Of a stretch of DNA of 64,000 nucleotides, positions 6,664 through 39,072 are shown piece by piece. The notes below the pieces were generated by a model, which saw only the letters and a list, made by a program, of their open reading frames with translations, was not told where the DNA came from and searched no databases. Numbering within the stretch: the stretch's first letter is position 1; each line of letters starts with the position of its first letter. The stretch lies in the sequence record PP410321; one strand, written 5' to 3'. The translations under genes and the position numbers were made by a program. The DNA comes from Escherichia phage vB_EcoM_CUA3.

Positions 6664-6995
6664 TTCGCAGCCTTAACAATTTTAAGGTCAACGAATTTTT
6701 TCTTACGTTGATTCTTCATACGACGGATGGTTTTGTCTGTGATTTCACCTGGGTGCCAAGCTTTAGATTCGACACCAAAAGCGGCAACATCAAACTCATC
6801 AAGGATATATTGGACCAGGATTTCACGAATACCATTCTTACCGATTTTCTGGTCTTTAGAATGCATAATTGGTAACAGTTCAGCAACCCATTGGTCAAGA
6901 ACCTGAGGAGTTACAAAGCCAGTTTTCATCAGTTCGTTTACTTTATCGAAAGCGAAAGAGTTCAGTACGTTTTTAATAGCTTGTGACATAATAAT
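6660..6995 (-). CDS. hypothetical protein
   Basis: ORF beginning MSQAIK at ATG 6993-6995 with SD aggaaa; early promoter immediately upstream. Confidence 0.45.
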   Translation of the reverse strand: MIMSQAIKNVLNSFAFDKVNELMKTGFVTPQVLDQWVAELLPIMHSKDQKIGKNGIREILVQYILDEFDVAAFGVESKAWHPGEITDKTIRRMKNQRKKKFVDLKIVKAAK

Positions 6996-7030
6996 TTCCT
7001 CAGTTNNNNAATTTATAATCCGTAGGACCA

Positions 7031-7694: not shown

Positions 7695-7949
7695 TTACCT
7701 CAGCAGTTTGTATCCAATAAGATTTTTAATGTACTGGACATCTTTGACATCCAAATCCAACTTAATATCTTTCAGGCGTTCAGCCAGAGTAAGAAATGTT
7801 ACGCGTTTCCAATTCTTAACAGGACAGCAATACGTCTTAGGACCGTTGGCGATTTCAATATTTTTATCTGTGACGGTGAGAAAAACCAGACGCTCATCAT
7901 CAAGATTAAGGGTGATGACACTTTTGGTTGAATGTAGTTTCAGGCTCAT
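7695..7949 (-). CDS. hypothetical protein
   Basis: 84-aa ORF; ATGA overlap with upstream small ORF. Confidence 0.35.
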   Translation of the reverse strand: MSLKLHSTKSVITLNLDDERLVFLTVTDKNIEIANGPKTYCCPVKNWKRVTFLTLAERLKDIKLDLDVKDVQYIKNLIGYKLLR

Positions 7950-8122
7950 AATTCAATTTCCTTGGCTATCGAACAAAATATGGCGCGGTCACAAATCATT
8001 TTAATATTAAGTTCAATTATGGTATACCACACGTCCAGGCTAGATATTTCAGTTACTAGAACAGCTTTGCCGTTGATTGAATAATACTGGTCGGCTTTAA
8101 TTTCTTTATCTTGGATAGTCAT
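7946..8122 (-). CDS. hypothetical small protein (58 aa)
   Basis: not in the ORF track (under 60 aa); ATG 8120-8122 preceded by SD gaggag and an early promoter; translates MTIQDKEIKADQYY...; stop overlaps next ATG. Confidence 0.35.
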   Translation of the reverse strand: MTIQDKEIKADQYYSINGKAVLVTEISSLDVWYTIIELNIKMICDRAIFCSIAKEIEL

Positions 8123-8151
8123 AATGTTCTCCTCATGTGTTGATAGGATAG

Positions 8152-8180
8152 ACTATACCACGTGAGGAGAGGAAGTAAAC
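8152..8180 (-). promoter_or_regulatory. T4-type early promoter
   Basis: GTTTAC (8175-8180), 17-nt spacer, TATAGT (8152-8157). Confidence 0.5.
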
Positions 8181-13641: not shown

Positions 13642-14484
13642 TTAATCCTTAAGAAGATTTAGGATATCGATATATTTTTGACGTTCAGCCTTAGCTTTAG
13701 CATTCAGACCAGAGAGTCGGAAAATCTCATCATCTTGTTGTTGGATTGTAACATTCAAGCAAGTAAGCAAATTGCTAAAATACTCGATTTGAGATTGATG
13801 CTTCTCATTGCTGCGCACTGGTACAGGTTCCGGTTTAGGAGCTTCTGAATGCTCTTNNNNNNNNNNNNNNNNNNNNNNNNNNNNNNNNNNNNNNNNNNNN
13901 NNNNNNNNNNNNNNNNNNNNNNNNNNNNNNNNNNNNNGTTCTAGTTCAGACAAAGCCAATCGAAGATGGAATTTCCAGTTGTCATATTGACAACCACTAA
14001 AAGTTGAAGTAAGATACTCGTTTTCGTTACCTGGTTGGTTGACAATATTAAAGATAATCCAATCGCCTGAACCATTAGTCTTAAATGGCATTTGCTTATC
14101 TTGACCTTTTGCAAGGCGAGCACCCAGTGCTAGTAAACGACGTTGGTTAGTACGAAGGTCTTTAACAACTTCATCAAATGACATCGCCGGGATTAAACGA
14201 CCGTAGAGGTCATAGCCTTTGTTATAATTTCTAAGAATAATTCTGGCGTTAGCACGAGTCAACATACCTGTCCTGTGAAGAGATTTCATGACTCGGTCTT
14301 CTAACGTAAACAAACCTTTAGTCTTGTCAAAGATTTTAGTGAATTCATCTNNNACAGTACAAACTTCAAACTTTTCCCACATCATNNNNNNNACCTTTTC
14401 AACCACTTCTTTATNNNTCGGAATACGACCAAATTTAATAACTTTTTTAACTTCAGAACGAATTTGATTAATTGCTTGTGACAT
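13642..14484 (-). CDS. hypothetical protein
   Basis: 280-aa ORF beginning MSQAI; shares an identical 26-nt initiation region with the gene at 6660..6995. Confidence 0.45.
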   Translation of the reverse strand: MSQAINQIRSEVKKVIKFGRIPXXKEVVEKXXXMMWEKFEVCTXXDEFTKIFDKTKGLFTLEDRVMKSLHRTGMLTRANARIILRNYNKGYDLYGRLIPAMSFDEVVKDLRTNQRRLLALGARLAKGQDKQMPFKTNGSGDWIIFNIVNQPGNENEYLTSTFSGCQYDNWKFHLRLALSELEXXXXXXXXXXXXXXXXXXXXXXXXXXXXEHSEAPKPEPVPVRSNEKHQSQIEYFSNLLTCLNVTIQQQDDEIFRLSGLNAKAKAERQKYIDILNLLKD

Positions 14485-14521
14485 AATAATTTCCTCAGTA
14501 AGTAATTAAGAACCTAGAACC

Positions 14522-14548: not shown

Positions 14549-15072
14549 TATGCGAGAACCGTCTTTAAACGCTCTTCAAATTTCTGAAGCAGAGCTTGGC
14601 GTTCAGCTCGTTGTGATTTGTACTGCTCGATACGACCTGAAGTGAGGGCGTACTGTTCGTTTACTGATTCCCGCATAAATTCAGGAATCTCTTTACAAGC
14701 TTTGATTTCGTCAAACTTATCAATAACCGCTTGTTCCTCGGCAATCAGATTATCGAAATAAGCGATATCCGATTTAACGTTTGCCAGGTCAGATTCAGTA
14801 GGCATTAAACGTTTGTTACGTTCAGCTTGATAAGCCTGGTTGGTTTCACGACTCCAGTGGAGAGTACGTTTTTTGTTAGTGTTTTTATAGAGCTCTACAA
14901 TACCAACTGAATCGATGATAGCAATCCAGTTCCAACGGCTTTTGTAAATCTCTCCTCCAGATACGGTAATCTCATTACCACAAGCAACGTCGTTAAAGAA
15001 CTTGCTTTGTTTTTCAGATTTGAAATTACCGTTGTTAAAATTAATCAGTGAAAAAATATCTTTAGCGTTCAT
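14548..15072 (-). CDS. hypothetical protein
   Basis: 174-aa ORF, ATG 15070-15072, SD ggaggt. Confidence 0.45.
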   Translation of the reverse strand: MNAKDIFSLINFNNGNFKSEKQSKFFNDVACGNEITVSGGEIYKSRWNWIAIIDSVGIVELYKNTNKKRTLHWSRETNQAYQAERNKRLMPTESDLANVKSDIAYFDNLIAEEQAVIDKFDEIKACKEIPEFMRESVNEQYALTSGRIEQYKSQRAERQALLQKFEERLKTVLA

Positions 15073-15098
15073 GATAACCTCCAGTAGTTGATAGGTCT

Positions 15099-15127
15099 AT
15101 AGTATCATTTCTACTGGAGATGTAAAC
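15099..15127 (-). promoter_or_regulatory. T4-type early promoter
   Basis: GTTTAC (15122-15127), 17 nt, TACTAT (15099-15104). Confidence 0.55.
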
Positions 15128-19469: not shown

Positions 19470-19920
19470 TATGCTTTCAACTCATTAAGATACTCAACCA
19501 AGGCTGCTTTAGAGTTAGCCAAATCCCGTTTACACTGCTCTATTCCGGAATACGAATAGCCTTCGCAATATTCAACAGCTAGGTCATTGGATGCGTTTTC
19601 AATGTGCTGGGCGAGTTTGATAATTTTCTCAATCTGTTCAGTAGTTAACATAANNNNNNNNNNNNNNNNNNNNNNNNNNNNNNNNNNNNNNNNNNNNNNN
19701 NNNNNNNNNNNNNNNNNNNNNNNNNNNNNNNNNNNNNNNNNNNNNNNNNNNNNNNNNNNNNNNNNNNNNNNNNNNNNNNNNNNNNNNNNNNNNNNNNNNN
19801 NNNNNNNNNNNNNNNNNNNNNNNNNNNNNNNNNNNNNNNNNNNNNNNNNNNNNNNNNNNNNNNNNNNNNNNNNNNNNNNNNNNNNNNNNNNNACTNTTCT
19901 CCTCATTAGTTGATAGGTCT

Positions 19921-19949
19921 ATAGTATCACGTTCCTAGAGGATGTAAAC
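19921..19949 (-). promoter_or_regulatory. T4-type early promoter
   Basis: GTTTAC (19944-19949), 17 nt, TACTAT (19921-19926); drives a masked downstream gene. Confidence 0.55.
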
Positions 19950-22651: not shown

Positions 22652-23004
22652 TTAGAGTTTAGCCCTCGATTGTAAGAGTCAACGAGTCTGTCTACCATAG
22701 ACGCGCACATTTCTTTGTACTTTTTATCAGACGGAACACATTCAGTAACGTTTAGACGTTGCTCGTATCTTTTAGAAAGAGTTTTCTCTTTCATTCGGCG
22801 ATGCTCGACGTCGTTCTGCCCATCTTTAAAAGCAGCTGTTATTTTTGAACTGAATTCAATAACACATTCAGTATTACTCGGATGACAATAATCTTTTGCT
22901 GTACGGGTGGCATACTCGACAATTGAATTATTTGTATCATCAACCTGTGACGCTAATACTCCCGGAGCAATCAACATAAGCGCTATAGTCATCTGTTTAA
23001 TCAT
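22648..23004 (-). CDS. hypothetical secreted protein (vs position)
   Basis: 118 aa with signal-peptide-like N-terminus; positionally equivalent to T4 vs, homology not established. Confidence 0.35.
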   Translation of the reverse strand: MIKQMTIALMLIAPGVLASQVDDTNNSIVEYATRTAKDYCHPSNTECVIEFSSKITAAFKDGQNDVEHRRMKEKTLSKRYEQRLNVTECVPSDKKYKEMCASMVDRLVDSYNRGLNSK

Positions 23005-23544
23005 TTAATATACCGCCTCAAACATCTTTTTAGATTTTAGGTAATTGGCCTTTTCTAGAACTTCAGAAGCATATTTACTACCTGCTTTGACATTCCAGCC
23101 CGCATTATAAGAAGCAATCGCTTTTCTCAGGTCACCTTTGTGAACATCAATCCAATAAGACAGTTCAATGTAGGCCCAAGAGGCACTGTTCTGTCGTTTT
23201 TGGACCATACGAATTATTTCTTTGTCTGACATCTTCCAACCTACCTGTTGAACACGACTTCTTAACGTAGGCAAGTAATTTTGGAACATGCCATAAGCAT
23301 GGTGCTTATCTTTATTTAAACCCTGATTAATTCCGGCAGATGATTCCTGCCATAACAATCCGGCCATTATATATCCTAATCCTTTTTGATTAGGGTTTTC
23401 TTTGAACTTTCCCGACTTTTGGTATTGTTCACCGAAAGCATACGCATAATGTAAATTATCGAGTTGTTCATTACTGAAAGTAGGCTCTACGCTATGGGCA
23501 GACATACTAACTGTCAATAGTAAAGTGGCTAATACTTTTTTCAT
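23005..23544 (-). CDS. vs.1: lytic transglycosylase-like protein (SLT domain), signal peptide
   Basis: N-terminal signal peptide; ...LLWQESS...YNAGW... consistent with SLT family; position as T4 vs.1. Confidence 0.6.
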   Translation of the reverse strand: MKKVLATLLLTVSMSAHSVEPTFSNEQLDNLHYAYAFGEQYQKSGKFKENPNQKGLGYIMAGLLWQESSAGINQGLNKDKHHAYGMFQNYLPTLRSRVQQVGWKMSDKEIIRMVQKRQNSASWAYIELSYWIDVHKGDLRKAIASYNAGWNVKAGSKYASEVLEKANYLKSKKMFEAVY

Positions 23545-23556
23545 GAGACCTCATTA

Positions 23557-24015
23557 TTAAAGATAGATTACTTTCGTGCTGGTTTTACCTTCTAAACGTT
23601 TAGAGTTAACAAATGCCATACGGCATTTTAATGAATATCCTTTATCAGGATGTTTACGGTCTACGGTCATACCCAACCATAAGGTTTTATCGGTAATCTC
23701 GAGACGCAGTGGTCGATACACTTTACCTGGGACAATTTCAGATTCTACATCAGGAAGAGGCTCCTGGATTAAAAATTCATGGATTTCTTTAACATGATTG
23801 TGGAGCTTCTTGAACAAAGAGAAAACATATTTTTCGTCAATTTCACGTTGGATAGCACGGTCCAACAGGTGATTAGAGTACTTAATAAAGAAAGCTGGGA
23901 CACCGCTCTTGACGGCGGCTTTTTTGATGGACGCGTTAAGTTCACGAAATTCGGTTTCGAACTGTCGACGTAATTTGTTGCGGCGGATGAATACTTCTGA
24001 ATTAATTTCTGACAT
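23557..24015 (-). CDS. regB: endoribonuclease RegB
   Basis: 152 aa, high similarity to T4 RegB as I recall it (EVFIRRNKLRRxFExEFR...HLLDRAIQREIDE...LEITD). Confidence 0.85.
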   Translation of the reverse strand: MSEINSEVFIRRNKLRRQFETEFRELNASIKKAAVKSGVPAFFIKYSNHLLDRAIQREIDEKYVFSLFKKLHNHVKEIHEFLIQEPLPDVESEIVPGKVYRPLRLEITDKTLWLGMTVDRKHPDKGYSLKCRMAFVNSKRLEGKTSTKVIYL

Positions 24016-24043
24016 TTTGTAATCTCCTGTAGTTGATAGGTCT

Positions 24044-24072
24044 ATAGTACCACGCCTACAGGAGATGTAAAC
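24044..24072 (-). promoter_or_regulatory. T4-type early promoter for regB
   Basis: GTTTAC (24067-24072), 17 nt, TACTAT (24044-24049); 9-bp inverted repeat pairs the SD with the spacer. Confidence 0.6.
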
Positions 24073-24077
24073 TGCTT

Positions 24078-24356
24078 TTAGTATTTCTCTTCAGGTTGGA
24101 AAACACCACGACAAGCCCACATAGAAGCTTCTTTCAANNNNNNNNNNNNNNNNNNNNNNNNNNNNNNNNNNNNNNNNNNNNNNNNNNNNNNNNNNNNNNN
24201 NNNNNNNNNNNNNNNNNNNNNNNNNNNNNNNNNNNNNNNNNCNTCTTCAAGCGCTTTAAAGATTAATCCCAATCGAACTTCAGCATCTTTGATGGCATTC
24301 ACTTTACCGATTTTATCGTCGGTATGTGGCTTGTAACCTTTGATATCTTCAATCAT
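24078..24356 (-). CDS. hypothetical protein
   Basis: 92-aa ORF, middle masked. Confidence 0.3.
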   Translation of the reverse strand: MIEDIKGYKPHTDDKIGKVNAIKDAEVRLGLIFKALEXXXXXXXXXXXXXXXXXXXXXXXXXXXXXXXXXXXXLKEASMWACRGVFQPEEKY

Positions 24357-24571
24357 TTCACTTCCTCGCCAGTTGCGATATCATATTCTACCAAACGAAG
24401 GCCTTCANNTCCANCNCTNACCGAGATATACGTAGTCGGGTAAACCATTTCTTTACCATTCCACTGACCACCATCCCAGACTTCCAGAAAGTCTTGTTCN
24501 NNNNNNNNNNNNNNNNNNNNNNNNNNNNNNNNNNNNNCTGCATCAGAGCCTTCAATTGTCAATTTAGACAT
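24353..24571 (-). CDS. hypothetical protein
   Basis: 72-aa ORF. Confidence 0.3.
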   Translation of the reverse strand: MSKLTIEGSDAXXXXXXXXXXXXXEQDFLEVWDGGQWNGKEMVYPTTYISXXXGXEGLRLVEYDIATGEEVK

Positions 24572-24860
24572 ATTTTTTCCAGTCAGAAATCATACGAATC
24601 TCTTGGTCATAAGTCAAGAGACTACGAGTAATAATACCCTTACAAGGCCCTGAGATGAACTCGAGAGTGAAGTAAGGAACCAATTTCATTAATCGGATGC
24701 TTGGGGCATGGCATCTAAAACGAGAGCCCTTAAAGGGCCCTGTCATGAATACATATTCCAATGGATAGAAATAAGCATATTCGAAATTTGTAGTAAGGTC
24801 CTCTCTTCGAACCTTACGTGAGAAATAACAGAACTCAAAAAGCTCTTCATCAGTCATCAT
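24564..24860 (-). CDS. hypothetical protein
   Basis: 98-aa ORF. Confidence 0.35.
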   Translation of the reverse strand: MMTDEELFEFCYFSRKVRREDLTTNFEYAYFYPLEYVFMTGPFKGSRFRCHAPSIRLMKLVPYFTLEFISGPCKGIITRSLLTYDQEIRMISDWKKYV

Positions 24861-25384
24861 TGCATTCCTATCACAAAGAACAGCGGCAGAGGTTTAGAAC
24901 CCTGGCACATAAATTTATTAATCATTACCTGGTAAGCTTCATAAAACTTATCCATCGCCGGAAGGCGCATTGGCTCTTCGATAATAATCAATAATCGAGT
25001 AACAGATAGTCCACGATACTTATGGAAATTGTCTTCATCNAANANTGNNCGTACAGTATCATACACAACAAACCCAGGACCTTCTACTTGAAGGTGTGGT
25101 TGGGCCTTAGAAACCCTTTTTATTATATTACAGATTTCTCGTGAGCGATGTGAAGAACTTGACATAACAATTACATCATTACCCTTGGAAACCCAATCAG
25201 CTGCGAACTGGGCAAGGGCGCTTGTTTTACCTGTTTGCCTTCCCCCGTCAAGTCGAAGAGTACCAAACTCTTGCATTCTTGAAGCGGGTTCGTACCAGGT
25301 GTATTGGTCTGAATCTAAGCGTTCAATGGCGCGTTCAGCGAAGGCGTGCATTAAGGTTAGATAAATGGGAGTTAAAAATTTCAT
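24857..25384 (-). CDS. small P-loop NTPase-like protein
   Basis: Walker A-like GGRQTGKTS and hydrophobic-acidic LLIIIEE; 175 aa. Confidence 0.4.
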   Translation of the reverse strand: MKFLTPIYLTLMHAFAERAIERLDSDQYTWYEPASRMQEFGTLRLDGGRQTGKTSALAQFAADWVSKGNDVIVMSSSSHRSREICNIIKRVSKAQPHLQVEGPGFVVYDTVXXXXDEDNFHKYRGLSVTRLLIIIEEPMRLPAMDKFYEAYQVMINKFMCQGSKPLPLFFVIGMQ

Positions 25385-25475
25385 AATTGTCTCTTAGTTG
25401 AGGGGCCGTTCCTTGGCACATAATTCATCCCTTTCTCNGNATTTNNACCCATTACCGCACTTGGGCTCGACCTTA

Positions 25476-25844
25476 TTACAGGTTGGNNNNNNNNNNNNNN
25501 NNNNNNNNNNNNNNNNNNNNNNNNNNNNNNNNNNNNNNNNNNNNNNNNNNNNNNNNNNNNNNNNNNNNNNNNNNNNNNNNNNNNNNNNNNNNNNNNNNNN
25601 NNNNNNNNNNNNNNNNNNNNNNNNNNNNNNNNNNNNNNNNNNNNNNNNNNNNNNNNNNNNNNNNNNNNNNNNNNNNNNNNNNNNNNNNNNNNNNNNNNNN
25701 NNNNNNNNNNNNNNNNNNNNNNNNNNNNNNNNNNNNNNNNNNNNNNNNNNNNNNNNNNNNNNNNNNNNNNNNNNNNNNNNNNNNNNNNNNNNNNNNNNNN
25801 NNNNNNNNNNNNGATTCTGTAATAAATTGTTGATAAGTTTTCAT
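25476..25844 (-). CDS. internal (capsid-injected) protein with capsid-targeting leader, body masked
   Basis: N-terminus MKTYQQFITE matches the T4 internal-protein capsid targeting sequence (MKTYQEFIAE). Confidence 0.55.
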   Translation of the reverse strand: MKTYQQFITEXXXXXXXXXXXXXXXXXXXXXXXXXXXXXXXXXXXXXXXXXXXXXXXXXXXXXXXXXXXXXXXXXXXXXXXXXXXXXXXXXXXXXXXXXXXXXXXXXXXXXXXXXXXXXXNL

Positions 25845-25868
25845 ATTATTCCTTAAGTTGATAGAAGT

Positions 25869-25898
25869 ATTCTATCACGGATTTAATTAAGCGTAAAT
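25869..25898 (-). promoter_or_regulatory. early-promoter-like element
   Basis: ATTTAC (25893-25898), 18 nt, TAGAAT (25869-25874), overlapping the end of denV. Confidence 0.4.
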
Positions 25899-26303
25899 AG
25901 CCTTACCATAATGTTTGTACCAGGTAGGGCGTTGTGCAATTTTTTCATCCAAACGGGCTTGTGAAATAGCGATAGAAGCTTCGTGAGGAACATAATCACC
26001 ACGGAATTCCTGAGGAATGTCGCTAATATCCTGGACCGTAGTATCCTTGATATTAAAACCACGTTTTAAACATTCGGCTATAAGCTCAATTTGGCGTTTA
26101 CGTAAGAACTCTAGCTTATCGTAAAAGAACGTAACATGACCTGTGCCAAGGATAAAAGTAGGACTGATTTTGAAATCACGAACACGTTTACCATTAGCCA
26201 CATGCTTACGAACTGCACCGAAAACACGGGGTAATTCACGATATTCGGCCATAAGATGTTGGTCAGCCAATTCAGATACTAAGGTAAGGTTGATACGAGT
26301 CAT
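25887..26303 (-). CDS. denV: endonuclease V, pyrimidine-dimer DNA glycosylase (DenV)
   Basis: 138 aa, high similarity to T4 endonuclease V ([27 protein letters not shown]...). Confidence 0.9.
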
Positions 26304-26305
26304 TT

Positions 26306-26758
26306 TTAATCTCCTGTAGTTGATAGGTTTATAGTATCATGCCTACAGGAGATGTAAACNNNNNNNNNNNNNNNNNNNNNNNNNNNNNNNNNNNNNNNNN
26401 NNNNNNNNNNNNNNNNNNNNNNNNNNNNNNNNNNNNNNNNNNNNNNNNNNNNNNNNNNNNNNNNNNNNNNNNNNNNNNNNNNNNNNNNNNNNNNNNNNNN
26501 NNNNNNNNNNNNNNNNNNNNNNNNNNNNNNNNNNNNNNNNNNNNNNNNNNNNNNNNNNNNNNNNNNNNNNNNNNNNNNNNNNNNNNNNNNNNNNNNNNNN
26601 NNNNNNNNNNNNNNNNNNNNNNNNNNNNNNNNNNNNNNNNNNNNNNNNNNNNNNNNNNNNNNNNNNNNNNNNNNNNNNNNNNNNNNNNNNNNNNNNNNNN
26701 NNNNNNNNNNNNNNNNNNNNNNNNNNNNNNNNNNNNNAAATTCATTGTAAGTTTTCAT
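26306..26758 (-). CDS. internal protein with capsid-targeting leader (ipII/ipIII-type), body masked
   Basis: N-terminus MKTYNEF; located between denV and e as the T4 ipII/ipIII genes. Confidence 0.55.
26331..26359 (-). promoter_or_regulatory. T4-type early promoter for denV
   Basis: GTTTAC (26354-26359), 17 nt, TACTAT (26331-26336); perfect 9-bp inverted repeat ctcctgtag/ctacaggag. Confidence 0.6.
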
Positions 26759-27480: not shown

Positions 27481-27969
27481 TTATCTATAAGCGGCCCAAG
27501 TGCCGGTTTTAAAGGTAGAGATAACTCGCTTAGCTCGGTTAGGGGTTTGCTTGTACCAACGAGACTGGGCCAGGTTAACTGCTGCATCGTCCCAACGTTT
27601 TTGCTGAAGCATACGCAGAGAGTTAGTGAACCCTGCTACACCCGCTTCACCCATTTGGAAGACCATATTAATCAATGCACAACGACGAACTTCGTCCAGC
27701 ACATCATAAACAGGTTTCAATTTAGGATTACGCAATATAGCTCTACGAGCATTTTCCACTGAACGATTAAAGAGTTGTTCAGCCTCAGCCATAGTAATAC
27801 GACCATTGCAAACTCGACCCATAAGTTTGTCAAGTTCAGCACGAGCAACATCTTTAGATGGGTTCTTGGTAACTAACTGACCGATACCAATAGTCCAATA
27901 ACCTTCAGTATCTTTATAAAGATTTAAATCAAGACCTTCGTCTTGACGTAACATATCAAAAATATCCAT
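27481..27969 (-). CDS. e: lysozyme (endolysin, T4 e homolog)
   Basis: 162 aa, catalytic E11/D20/T26 context conserved ([25 protein letters not shown]), high identity to T4 lysozyme. Confidence 0.95.
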
Positions 27970-28000
27970 AATTACCTCCTGAGTATAGGAGGTATTTATA

Positions 28001-30176: not shown

Positions 30177-30213
30177 TTTATTCTCCATTTCACTCTGTTG
30201 TTTTGATAGGTCT

Positions 30214-30242
30214 ATAGTATCACACCTATAGACCTTGTACAC
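30214..30242 (-). promoter_or_regulatory. early-promoter-like element (GTGTAC variant)
   Basis: GTGTAC (30237-30242), 17 nt, TACTAT (30214-30219); same repeat family as the other early promoters. Confidence 0.45.
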
Positions 30243-35132: not shown

Positions 35133-35531
35133 TTATTTCATTTTTGCGAGGCAGATTTCATTGGCTTCCCATTGAGCTTGCTTAATAATAGCTTTGGATA
35201 CAGGAACCCTTTGACCGTAAGTTTTTGATGTTGAGAGAACAATATGTTTGTTTGCTTCATTATGCCAGCCCCATGATTTTTCGCCATGAGTACCTTTAAC
35301 TACAGCTGACACCTCAACAGAGCAACCACCATCAGAAATCTTGGTTTCAACAATCCATTCATTTCTCTCAGCGGCTTCAATTTCCGATCTCCTTTTTTCT
35401 TCATACATGGCGGCCCAATCAGTTTTCGCCAGGTTGAAAGCAAGAGCTTTCTCTAATTCTTTGGCAGCTTTTTGTTGTTCGGGCGATAACGAATTATACA
35501 ACTCTTGCATTTCTTTATCTTCGATGTTCAT
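35133..35531 (-). CDS. hypothetical protein
   Basis: ATG 35529-35531 (MNIEDKEMQ) with SD aggagag; early promoter -10 upstream. Confidence 0.4.
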   Translation of the reverse strand: MNIEDKEMQELYNSLSPEQQKAAKELEKALAFNLAKTDWAAMYEEKRRSEIEAAERNEWIVETKISDGGCSVEVSAVVKGTHGEKSWGWHNEANKHIVLSTSKTYGQRVPVSKAIIKQAQWEANEICLAKMK

Positions 35532-36241
35532 TATGCTCTCCTTCACTCTGTTGTTTTGATAGGTCTATAGTATCATNTTNNNNNNNNNNNNNNNNNNNNN
35601 NNNNNNNNNNNNNNNNNNNNNNNNNNNNNNNNNNNNNNNNNNNNNNNNNNNNNNNNNNNNNNNNNNNNNNNNNNNNNNNNNNNNNNNNNNNNNNNNNNNN
35701 NNNNNNNNNNNNNNNNNNNNNNNNNNNNNNNNNNNNNNNNNNNNNNNNNNNNNNNNNNNNNNNNNNNNNNNNNNNNNNNNNNNNNNNNNNNNNNNNNNNN
35801 NNNNNNNNNNNNNNNNNNNNNNNNNNNNNNNNNNNNNNNNNNNNNNNNNNNNNNNNNNNNNNNNNNNNNNNNNNNNNNNNNNNNNNNNNNNNNNNNNNNN
35901 NNNNNNNNNNNNNNNNNNNNNNNNNNNNNNNNNNNNNNNNNNNNNNNNNNNNNNNNNNNNNNNNNNNNNNNNNNNNNNNNNNNNNNNNNNNNNNNNNNNN
36001 NNNNNNNNNNNNNNNNNNNNNNNNNNNNNNNNNNNNNNNNNNNNNNNNNNNNNNNNNNNNNNNNNNNNNNNNNNNNNNNNNNNNNNNNNNNNNNNNNNNN
36101 NNNNNNNNNNNNNNNNNNNNNNNNNNNNNNNNNNNNNNNNNNNNNNNNNNNNNNNNNNNNNNNNNNNNNNNNNNNNNNNNNNNNNNNNNNNNNNNNNNNN
36201 NNNNNNNNNNNNNNNNNNNNNNNNNNNNNNNNTATTTATAC

Positions 36242-38424: not shown

Positions 38425-38786
38425 TTTATTATCCNNNNNCTCATNTGTTTTGATAGGGCTATAGTATCANNNNNNNNNNNNNNNNNNNNNNNNNNNNNNN
38501 NNNNNNNNNNNNNNNNNNNNNNNNNNNNNNNNNNNNNNNNNNNNNNNNNNNNNNNNNNNNNNNNNNNNNNNNNNNNNNNNNNNNNNNNNNNNNNNNNNNN
38601 NNNNNNNNNNNNNNNNNNNNNNNNNNNNNNNNNNNNNNNNNNNNNNNNNNNNNNNNNNNNNNNNNNNNNNNNNNNNNNNNNNNNNNNNNNNNNNNNNNNN
38701 NNNNNNNNNNNNNNNNNNNNNNNNNNNNNNNNNNNNNNNNNNNNNNNNNNNNNNNNNNNNNNNNTAAATTCTTGATAAGTTTTCAT
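38421..38786 (-). CDS. ipI: internal protein with capsid-targeting leader (ipI locus), body masked
   Basis: N-terminus MKTYQEF; located upstream of 57B as T4 ipI; early promoter repeat upstream. Confidence 0.55.
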   Translation of the reverse strand: MKTYQEFXXXXXXXXXXXXXXXXXXXXXXXXXXXXXXXXXXXXXXXXXXXXXXXXXXXXXXXXXXXXXXXXXXXXXXXXXXXXXXXXXXXXXXXXXXXXXXXXXXXDTIALSKXMXXXIIK

Positions 38787-39072
38787 TTTNNNGTTTCCAT
38801 TTGGTTNNNTTTGTTTTGATAGGTCTATAGTATCATNNNTATAGNCCTTGTAAANAACTTTTNNNNNNNNNNNNNNNNNNNNNNNNNNNNNNNNNNNNNN
38901 NNNNNNNNNNNNNNNNNNNNNNNNNNNNNNNNNNNNNNNNNNNNNNNNNNNNNNNNNNNNNNNNNNNNNNNNNNNNNNNNNNNNNNNNNNNNNNNNNNNN
39001 NNNNNNNNNNNNNNNNNNNNNNNNNNNNNNNNNNNNNNNNNNNNNNNNNNNNNNNNNNNNNNNNNNNNNNTT

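Follow-up and report, generated by a model that had tools for sequence, protein, structure and literature searches.

Helices between early-promoter spacers and Shine-Dalgarno regions in a T4-type coliphage: probable translational masks

In front of four early genes of Escherichia phage vB_EcoM_CUA3 (denV, regB, nrdC.8 and 55.6), a helix of 10-11 bp links the spacer of the promoter with the Shine-Dalgarno (SD) region about 24 nt downstream. The observation is real and conserved, and is borne out by the anatomy of the sequence, predicted energies, a statistical excess over chance and compensatory conservation of the pairing. The helix probably serves as a translational mask tying these genes to their own early promoter, a function that we infer together with the position of the transcription start, the existence and amount of read-through RNA and a block to 30S binding. 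The architecture is a subclass of the cassettes known as PeSL (promoter-early stem-loop) and an early-promoter version of a logic known from T4.

According to the proposed mechanism, each site would be a compact early cassette. Its promoter is a strong T4 early promoter of the sigma-70 type, and the functionally unconstrained 17-nt spacer holds an anti-SD-like stretch, CUCC with 5-7 bases beside it, that can pair with the SD region of the same gene about 24 nt downstream. RNA polymerase recruited locally would begin within the loop, some 5 nt short of the 3' arm, and would therefore produce an mRNA without the 5' arm and with an open SD. A polymerase coming from an upstream promoter would copy both arms, the helix would shut over the SD once made, and the gene would be translationally silent on long transcripts. 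Such genes would fall silent once their own immediate-early promoter stops firing, the reverse of what is known for e, soc, 49 and I-TevI, which are expressed late only. Two secondary effects are likely on long transcripts: structured GGAG would be shielded from RegB cleavage, and the untranslated open reading frame would be exposed to Rho and RNase (polarity).

Anatomy and folding of the four cassettes

The window, meaning the whole analysed stretch of 64,000 nucleotides (record PP410321), comes from a Dhakavirus, a JS10/JS98-like T4-type coliphage. Its part 23000-26350, which carries vs.1, regB, vs.x and denV, is about 95% identical to the Dhakavirus genomes JS10, UP19 and IME281. Subtracting 32000 from a JS10 coordinate gives the window coordinate, with the strand unchanged, and early genes lie on the minus strand. 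N-masked bases account for 13,011 of the 64,000 positions (~20%, in 149 runs) and hit many promoter regions. One run (26360-26737) adjoins the denV -35 on its upstream side, and since the DNA just upstream of this promoter is masked, upstream context was drawn from JS10. Context and genome-wide statistics rest on JS10 (NC_012741) and on T4 (NC_000866) outside 50-55 kb, the nrdC.8 region. Rfam matched three tRNAs and nothing else in the window, and assigned the helices to no known RNA family; the three tRNA genes (RF00005; 36443-36672, minus strand) correspond to the tRNA-Arg/Asn/Met cluster of JS10.

The inverted repeats that an earlier note on this DNA had placed at the four genes are all present on the minus strand, its coordinates being right to within a base or two and its regB SD arm off by one. 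Every site has an early promoter of the type GTTTAC-N17-TAYWRT. As the spacer measures 17 nt at all four, the -35 and -10 boxes enclose the 5' arm, and the predicted +1 (set from sequence at 7 nt after the -10) falls in the loop. GGAG is contained in the 3' arm at four of four sites.

The denV cassette (26301..26359, minus strand) has its -35 GTTTAC at 26359..26354, its -10 TACTAT at 26336..26331, the predicted +1 at ~26324 and the ATG at 26303..26301. The 5' arm CTCCTGTAG (26351..26343) is located in the 17-nt spacer and the SD arm CTACAGGAG (26319..26311) in the SD region; with flanks, the arms read (A)TCTCCTGTAG on the 5' side and CTACAGGAG(AT) on the SD side. The whole site on the minus strand is GTTTAC-AT-CTCCTGTAG-GCATGA-TACTAT-AAACCTATCAA-CTACAGGAG-ATTAAAA-ATG. 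On paper, the 5' arm can be altered with both -35 and -10 spared, for example by CTCCTGTAG>CTGCAGTAG. The same arms occur in the regB cassette (24013..24072, minus strand; -35 24072..24067, -10 TACTAT 24049..24044, ATG 24015..24013), with CTCCTGTAG at 24064..24056 and CTACAGGAG at 24032..24024. The denV and regB cassettes of the window are identical and hence do not count as independent events.

The nrdC.8 cassette, belonging to the 14548..15072 gene, spans 15070..15127 on the minus strand (-35 15127..15122, -10 TACTAT 15104..15099, ATG 15072..15070), with the 5' arm CTCCAGTAG at 15119..15111 and the SD arm CTACTGGAG at 15087..15079. Relative to denV/regB its arms carry a compensatory double change, T>A on one side and A>T on the other; the co-variation between loci described earlier is real. 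The 55.6 cassette in front of the 8122 gene (8120..8180, minus strand; -35 8180..8175, -10 TATAGT 8157..8152, ATG 8122..8120) has the 5' arm CTCCTCACGTG at 8169..8159 and the SD arm CACATGAGGAG at 8139..8129. Its helix consists of 7+3 bp with one C.A mismatch, and those of denV, regB and nrdC.8 reach 11 pairs (AUCUCCNGUAG/CUACNGGAGRU).

For a test against chance, spacer and discriminator were shuffled with both hexamers kept, and the duplex with the gene's own translation-initiation region (TIR) was evaluated. An equal or better promoter:TIR duplex was obtained in 0/5000 shuffles for denV, 2/5000 for regB, 1/5000 for nrdC.8 and 38/5000 for 55.6. A promoter at 19949 was considered as a fifth site and rejected, as its CCUC/GAGG complementarity was not significant (474/5000 shuffles). 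This promoter (19893-19949, minus strand) corresponds to JS10 51949, where it lies directly behind a strong terminator hairpin; anecdotally, this fits with masking being unneeded where read-through is blocked.

RNA from the -35 to the ATG folds at -19.3 (denV), -19.1 (regB), -18.3 (nrdC.8) and -18.9 kcal/mol (55.6), with z-scores against dinucleotide shuffles of -3.2 to -5.7 over the four sites (denV -5.7, regB -3.5), and the centroid structure is the SD helix at each of them. The leaders made from the local promoters fold at 0, 0, -0.6 and -2.3 kcal/mol in the same order. Computed with 80 nt of upstream context from JS10, the mean probability of the SD hexamer being unpaired is 0.002-0.02 in read-through RNA versus 0.23-0.45 in local RNA. 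Read-through and promoter-proximal 5' ends thus differ in the expected way (-18.3 to -19.3 versus 0 to -2.3 kcal/mol). The earlier idea of an SD hidden on read-through and free on the local transcript holds for predicted energies and accessibility; its effect on translation would follow by analogy with gene e.

The window itself contains this textbook case of the same logic, 1.6 kb from the denV site. The hairpin of gene e (lysozyme; 27967..28000, minus strand) has the late promoter TATAAATA at 28000..27993, the arms ACCTCC/GGAGGT and the ATG at 27969..27967. In the RNA, ACCUCC...GGAGGU covers the SD, and at -14.3 kcal/mol the hairpin is weaker than the four early helices.

Conservation of the pairing in related phages

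DNA upstream of denV was collected from 79 viral contigs. In almost every T4-like genome an early promoter is located directly upstream of denV, and the SD/TIR is paired in a helix with sequence that precedes the predicted start. The T4 helix is identical to that of the window (CTCCTGTAG/CTACAGGAG), and unrelated arms are found between clades (TTCCTCCAAG/CTTGGAGGAA, ATCTCCGTTTG/CAAACGGAGAT, TCTCCTGTG/CACAGGAGA and TTCTCCTGTAGATG/CATCTACAGGAGAA). The 5' arm of other clades has shifted onto the -10/discriminator (GATGTCTTCC/GGAGGACATC, ATGTCCTCCTA/TAGGAGGACAT, AGTAGCCT/AGGCTACT and GTGTTCTC/GAGAACAC), and the 3' arm of these variants spans SD to AUG. Whatever its place, the 5' arm precedes the predicted +1, and its partner is the SD or the AUG in nearly every clade.

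Among 23 distinct denV TIRs, picked without regard to pairing so that the energy test is unbiased, the cognate promoter:TIR duplex averages -15.1 kcal/mol versus -10.0 kcal/mol for non-cognate combinations. The cognate mean was reached by 0/100,000 permutations, and 17 of the 23 TIRs were individually significant. Because a MAFFT alignment of the denV upstream regions lost the register of the arms, a register-fitted pseudo-alignment was used in addition. In this alignment, which is biased towards pairing and was given less weight than the energy test, 65% of cells pair versus 49% after shuffling, and the covariation score is 0.393 versus 0.174 for shuffled data (0/500) and 0.10-0.16 with the partner slid. 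Between close relatives the DNA upstream of denV varies (contigs L005, L007 and L009).

A different overlap of promoter and terminator was observed in four jumbo phage contigs of 345-378 kb (L030, L034, L036 and L040), 95 nt upstream of denV. Here, the -35 TTGAC lies within a GC-rich hairpin with a T-run behind it (GGGTTGACTTCGGTCAGCCCTTTTT-GCTATAAT), and the terminator stem therefore holds the -35 of the next promoter; pairing with the SD is absent.

Covariation among T4-like relatives, strong at denV, was also found at regB, motB.2, 55.6 and modB. In T4, the arms of regB differ from those of the window but are again complementary (TTTTCCTCTTGA/TTAAGAGGAGAA; 10 Watson-Crick and 2 G.U pairs), and regB of two further contigs (L099/L100) has a 15-bp pair. 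The arms of motB.2 are TTCTCCTCATG/CATGAGGAGAA in JS10, where the promoter at 7761 drives motB.2 and dexA is without a promoter of its own, and CCTCGGT(T)AG/CTACTGAGG in T4. At modB, T4 and JS10 carry independent compensatory variants. In the relative L178, the 5' arm of 55.6 has three substitutions (CAC>TGT), by which pairing is kept via two G.U pairs and the C.A mismatch is repaired. The nrdC.8 helix of JS10 contains one mismatch.

Independent helices were identified in T4 at regB, motB.2, modB, ndd.4, alc, alt.-3, e.8 and mrh.2. At T4 166749-166807 (L184), the annotated ndd.4 ATG at 166764 has no SD, and an in-frame ATG 15 nt further downstream is preceded by GGAGG. As the 3' arm, this GGAGG pairs with the promoter spacer in a helix of 10 bp (CUGUUCUUCC/GGAGGAACAG), and the annotated start of T4 ndd.4 may be wrong.

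Not all orthologues follow this pattern. In three clades of regB orthologues and in one clade of nrdC.8 orthologues, the hairpin is placed around the -10 and the SD is free. This mixed picture is the main argument against masking as the selected trait. The denV result argues most strongly for it, as the partner of the upstream arm is held at the SD or AUG in nearly every clade despite relocation of the 5' arm.

The pairing seems to act on the sense RNA. In mRNA sense, G.U exceeds A.C at the non-Watson-Crick positions of the helices by 36 to 22 in the raw count and by ~21 to 10 when distinct helices are considered, an excess of only about 2:1, and the L178 substitutions pair via G.U only. This points to the RNA level, the G.U excess being modest.

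These data also bear on whether the helices have a selected RNA function at all. T4 is the classical system for quasi-palindrome-templated mutation, and together with cassette duplication such mutation could have generated the arms; alternatively, they could act at the level of DNA, for example as a cruciform affecting promoter opening. Identical cassettes at several loci would agree with this explanation, which is nevertheless very improbable. Arms about 24 nt apart disfavour cruciform extrusion, and the pairing outlasts deep divergence, unrelated arm sequences and relocation of the 5' arm. Moreover, G.U outnumbers A.C on the sense strand, and the 3' arm always lies on SD or AUG rather than at arbitrary positions.

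Distribution among early promoters and relation to PeSL cassettes

A general feature of early promoters, as contemplated earlier, is ruled out. In JS10, promoter:TIR pairing was found at p<=0.01 in 4 of 38 candidate early promoters and at p<=0.05 in 6 of 38, and in T4 at p<=0.016 in 9 of 33 candidates. The hairpin thus marks a subclass of about 10-27%, and some regB and nrdC.8 orthologues leave the SD free. Over T4 and JS10, an upstream:TIR duplex of -12 kcal/mol or better was present in 11 of the 54 genes that lie within 80 nt of an early promoter versus 8 of the 213 others (Fisher 2e-4); SD masking is specific to promoter junctions.

The remaining promoters often have a hairpin, either one that encloses or overlaps the -10 or one confined to the spacer, or have no hairpin at all; in JS10, most of the early-promoter hairpins lie around the -10 with the SD free or inside the spacer. 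An example of this second promoter type is found at 30186-30242 of the window (minus strand), where the spacer pairs with the -10/+1 region (AGGTCTATAG/CTATAGACCT; 10 bp, 8-nt loop, SD free). It also occurs at 38773-38872 and 35513-35612 (partly masked), both on the minus strand, as well as at about ten JS10 promoters and at T4 ipI, ipII, ipIII, trna.4, e.7 and 30.8. No U-tract follows the helix at window 30242, JS10 137677 or JS10 39059.

Stem-loops at early promoters of T4-like phages have been published as PeSL cassettes by Arbiol et al. 2010 and Comeau et al. 2014 (PMC2839356, PMC4122927). As far as the text of these papers goes, a PeSL is defined by an early promoter plus a stem-loop, mostly between -35 and -10 or over the -10; the stem-loop is taken to terminate or attenuate transcription, and the cassette to be where recombination occurs. 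The text of the 2010 paper distinguishes five positions of the stem-loop: upstream of the -35, over the -35, between the boxes, over the -10 and just before +1 (PMC2839356). The window cassettes share the AT-rich upstream region, the sigma-70-like early promoter, the stem-loop overlapping it and the SD plus ATG at the 3' end. They likewise measure about 60-100 bp and are repeated through early and hyperplastic regions in near-identical copies at different genes.

In the published classes, as the text describes them, both arms lie in or beside the promoter. The window cassettes have the 5' arm in the spacer, as described, but the 3' arm in the SD, outside the five positions; other promoters of the same genomes fit the listed ones. 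In the passages of the PeSL papers considered here, figures apart, the SD is only an annotated 3' element and a stem arm in the SD is not described, and the word 'translation' is absent from the text of the 2010 paper, again without its figures (PMC2839356). The earlier remark that such hairpins are not known as a general feature of early promoters has to be divided: the overlap of promoter and stem-loop is published as PeSL, and the SD-masking reading is not given in that text. The literature searched contained no description of SD masking combined with an early promoter; the older T4 literature may hold an earlier mention.

From these similarities it could be argued that the stem-loop is an attenuator or terminator for upstream transcription, that the cassette of about 60 nt is a site of homologous recombination by which genes are shuffled, and that the overlap with the SD is incidental. 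In support of this unlikely reading, one RB49 stem-loop was as effective as the rrnB T1 terminator in reducing lacZ expression, and PeSL crossovers were mapped between -10 and SD, according to the text of the 2010 paper (PMC2839356). At the early promoters of JS10 and T4, many stem-loops form without the SD, and the regB and nrdC.8 orthologues alternate between SD-type and -10-type hairpins. Given the SD-free hairpins at these orthologues and at most JS10 promoters, the selected property could therefore be a generic promoter stem-loop in place of SD masking.

Possible signs of recombination are present as well, in the near-identical denV and regB cassettes and in an apparent recombinant in JS10. 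At JS10 18717 (L002, outside the window), a promoter located behind a terminator has the denV-type 5' arm TTCTCCTGTAGG, i.e. the same 5' half-cassette as denV and regB, and an SD region CTTGGAGAAC that is mismatched to it, with 6 bp able to pair. It looks as if two cassettes had recombined here by a crossover in the loop. The two copies of a 32-nt direct repeat (6973-7004 and 14468-14499 of the window, 97% identical), which reads ACTGAGGAAATTATTATGTCACAAGCTATTAA on the minus strand, give JS10 55.3 and nrdC.6 the SD, the start codon and the first five codons in common, and cassette homology therefore reaches into coding sequence.

However, the four helices of the window do not resemble intrinsic (Rho-independent) terminators. 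Their loop of about 24 nt is ill suited to a generic stem-loop, a U-tract is lacking behind each of them (AUUAAAAAUG, AUUACAAAAUG, GUUAUCAUG and AACAUUAUG), and a terminator scan of the minus strand made no call at the denV or regB cassettes. A generic stem-loop also does not account for the partner of the denV upstream arm, which in nearly all clades remains the SD or AUG, also where the 5' arm has moved, nor for the five-fold enrichment of upstream:TIR pairing at promoter junctions, and recombination alone leaves the compensatory changes unexplained.

In line with a translational mask, read-through into denV is plausible, because no terminator-like site was found on the JS10 minus strand from the e/ipIII region to the denV promoter. 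[quoted passage not shown] A link between masking and the absence of an upstream terminator was examined and dropped: such a terminator was found at 1 of 15 masked promoters versus 11 of 56 others, which is the expected direction but not significant.

Late-promoter hairpins, RegB and significance for early gene control

SD hairpins with a nested late promoter are known from T4 e, soc, 49 and I-TevI (PMC3014915), the gene e hairpin cutting lysozyme synthesis about 100-fold (PMC3014915). Genes regulated by such hairpins 'are all late genes' according to Edgell et al. 2010 (PMC2988022). For comparison, the promoter-nested class was taken as e, soc, 49, I-TevI/II/III, segB, 25 and 26, together with mobE of Aeh1. 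As in the e/soc/49/I-TevI class, the helix at the window sites covers the SD and/or the AUG, transcripts from the promoter would lack the 5' arm (judging by the predicted +1), and long transcripts are masked and short ones open, here by predicted energies and SD accessibility only. The stabilities are of a similar order in the gene e hairpin and the early helices. In that class the nested promoter is late (gp55, TATAAATA) and the outcome late-only, whereas the window cassettes have a nested sigma-70-type early promoter in place of a late one and a predicted outcome of immediate-early-only expression. Their 5' arm is in the promoter spacer, or in relatives also on the -10/discriminator, and the loop of about 24 nt holds the -10 and +1.

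Another connection is given by RegB, a phage endoribonuclease that cleaves early SDs at GGAG and that secondary structure inhibits (PMC3014915, PMC1702504); the 3' arm of the window cassettes holds this GGAG. Structured GGAG motifs have been reported as RegB-resistant, and the 16 such sites were terminators, introns and UUCG hairpins (PMC1702504). A promoter-dependent opening of structure is not discussed in that study (PMC1702504). It could thus be proposed that the helix hides the SD GGAG from RegB on long polycistronic transcripts, keeping the mRNA of downstream genes intact, and that lost translation is a side effect. The SDs of T4 regB, motB.2 and modB are RegB targets (PMC1702504), and all three carry masking helices. 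T4 nrdC.8 has an SD that is a moderate target (PMC1702504), and the denV and regB SDs of the window (GGAGAUUAAAA and GGAGAUUACAA) resemble the RegB consensus GGAGRAYARAA. Yet the T4 denV SD is RegB-resistant through its 3' context (PMC1702504) and keeps the identical helix, which argues that a block to RegB is not the sole purpose. A helix from SD to AUG, as in the -10/discriminator architecture, also fits a block to initiation better than a shield for one tetranucleotide. Protection from RegB as the main role is accordingly judged improbable; the two functions are not mutually exclusive.

The modB RNA was found to be structured and RegB-resistant in vitro and cut in vivo (PMC1702504). Such structures are thus at times open in the cell, a point against masking. 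The discrepancy might arise because the early transcript in vivo would lack the 5' arm.

A broader proposal can be put forward tentatively and with less confidence than the translational mask itself. In a 'self-insulating' early cassette, an anti-SD in the spacer or discriminator would make the translation of about 10-25% of early genes (denV, regB, motB.2, modB, 55.6, nrdC.8, ndd.4, alc and others) dependent on a start at their own promoter. Together with cleavage by RegB of the SDs laid open on short transcripts, this would create a two-key window of immediate-early-only expression, and part of the PeSL 'terminator' stem-loops would be translational masks.

T4 is a reference system for temporal gene control, and promoter-nested SD-masking hairpins are presented in the reviews consulted as a device of late genes. 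What appears to be new is the proposed extension of the SD-masking logic from late-promoter genes to early genes. If true, early genes would have their own version of the late-only hairpins, and the sharp shut-off of some early proteins would have a general mechanism. It would explain proteins made only in the first minutes despite continued upstream transcription as well as the escape of some GGAG sites on long transcripts from RegB, and some of the PeSL stem-loops would have to be read differently. The cassettes show how a promoter spacer can hold a regulatory helix at zero cost in length, and translation from the own promoter only, insulated from read-through, would be a design directly reusable in synthetic biology.
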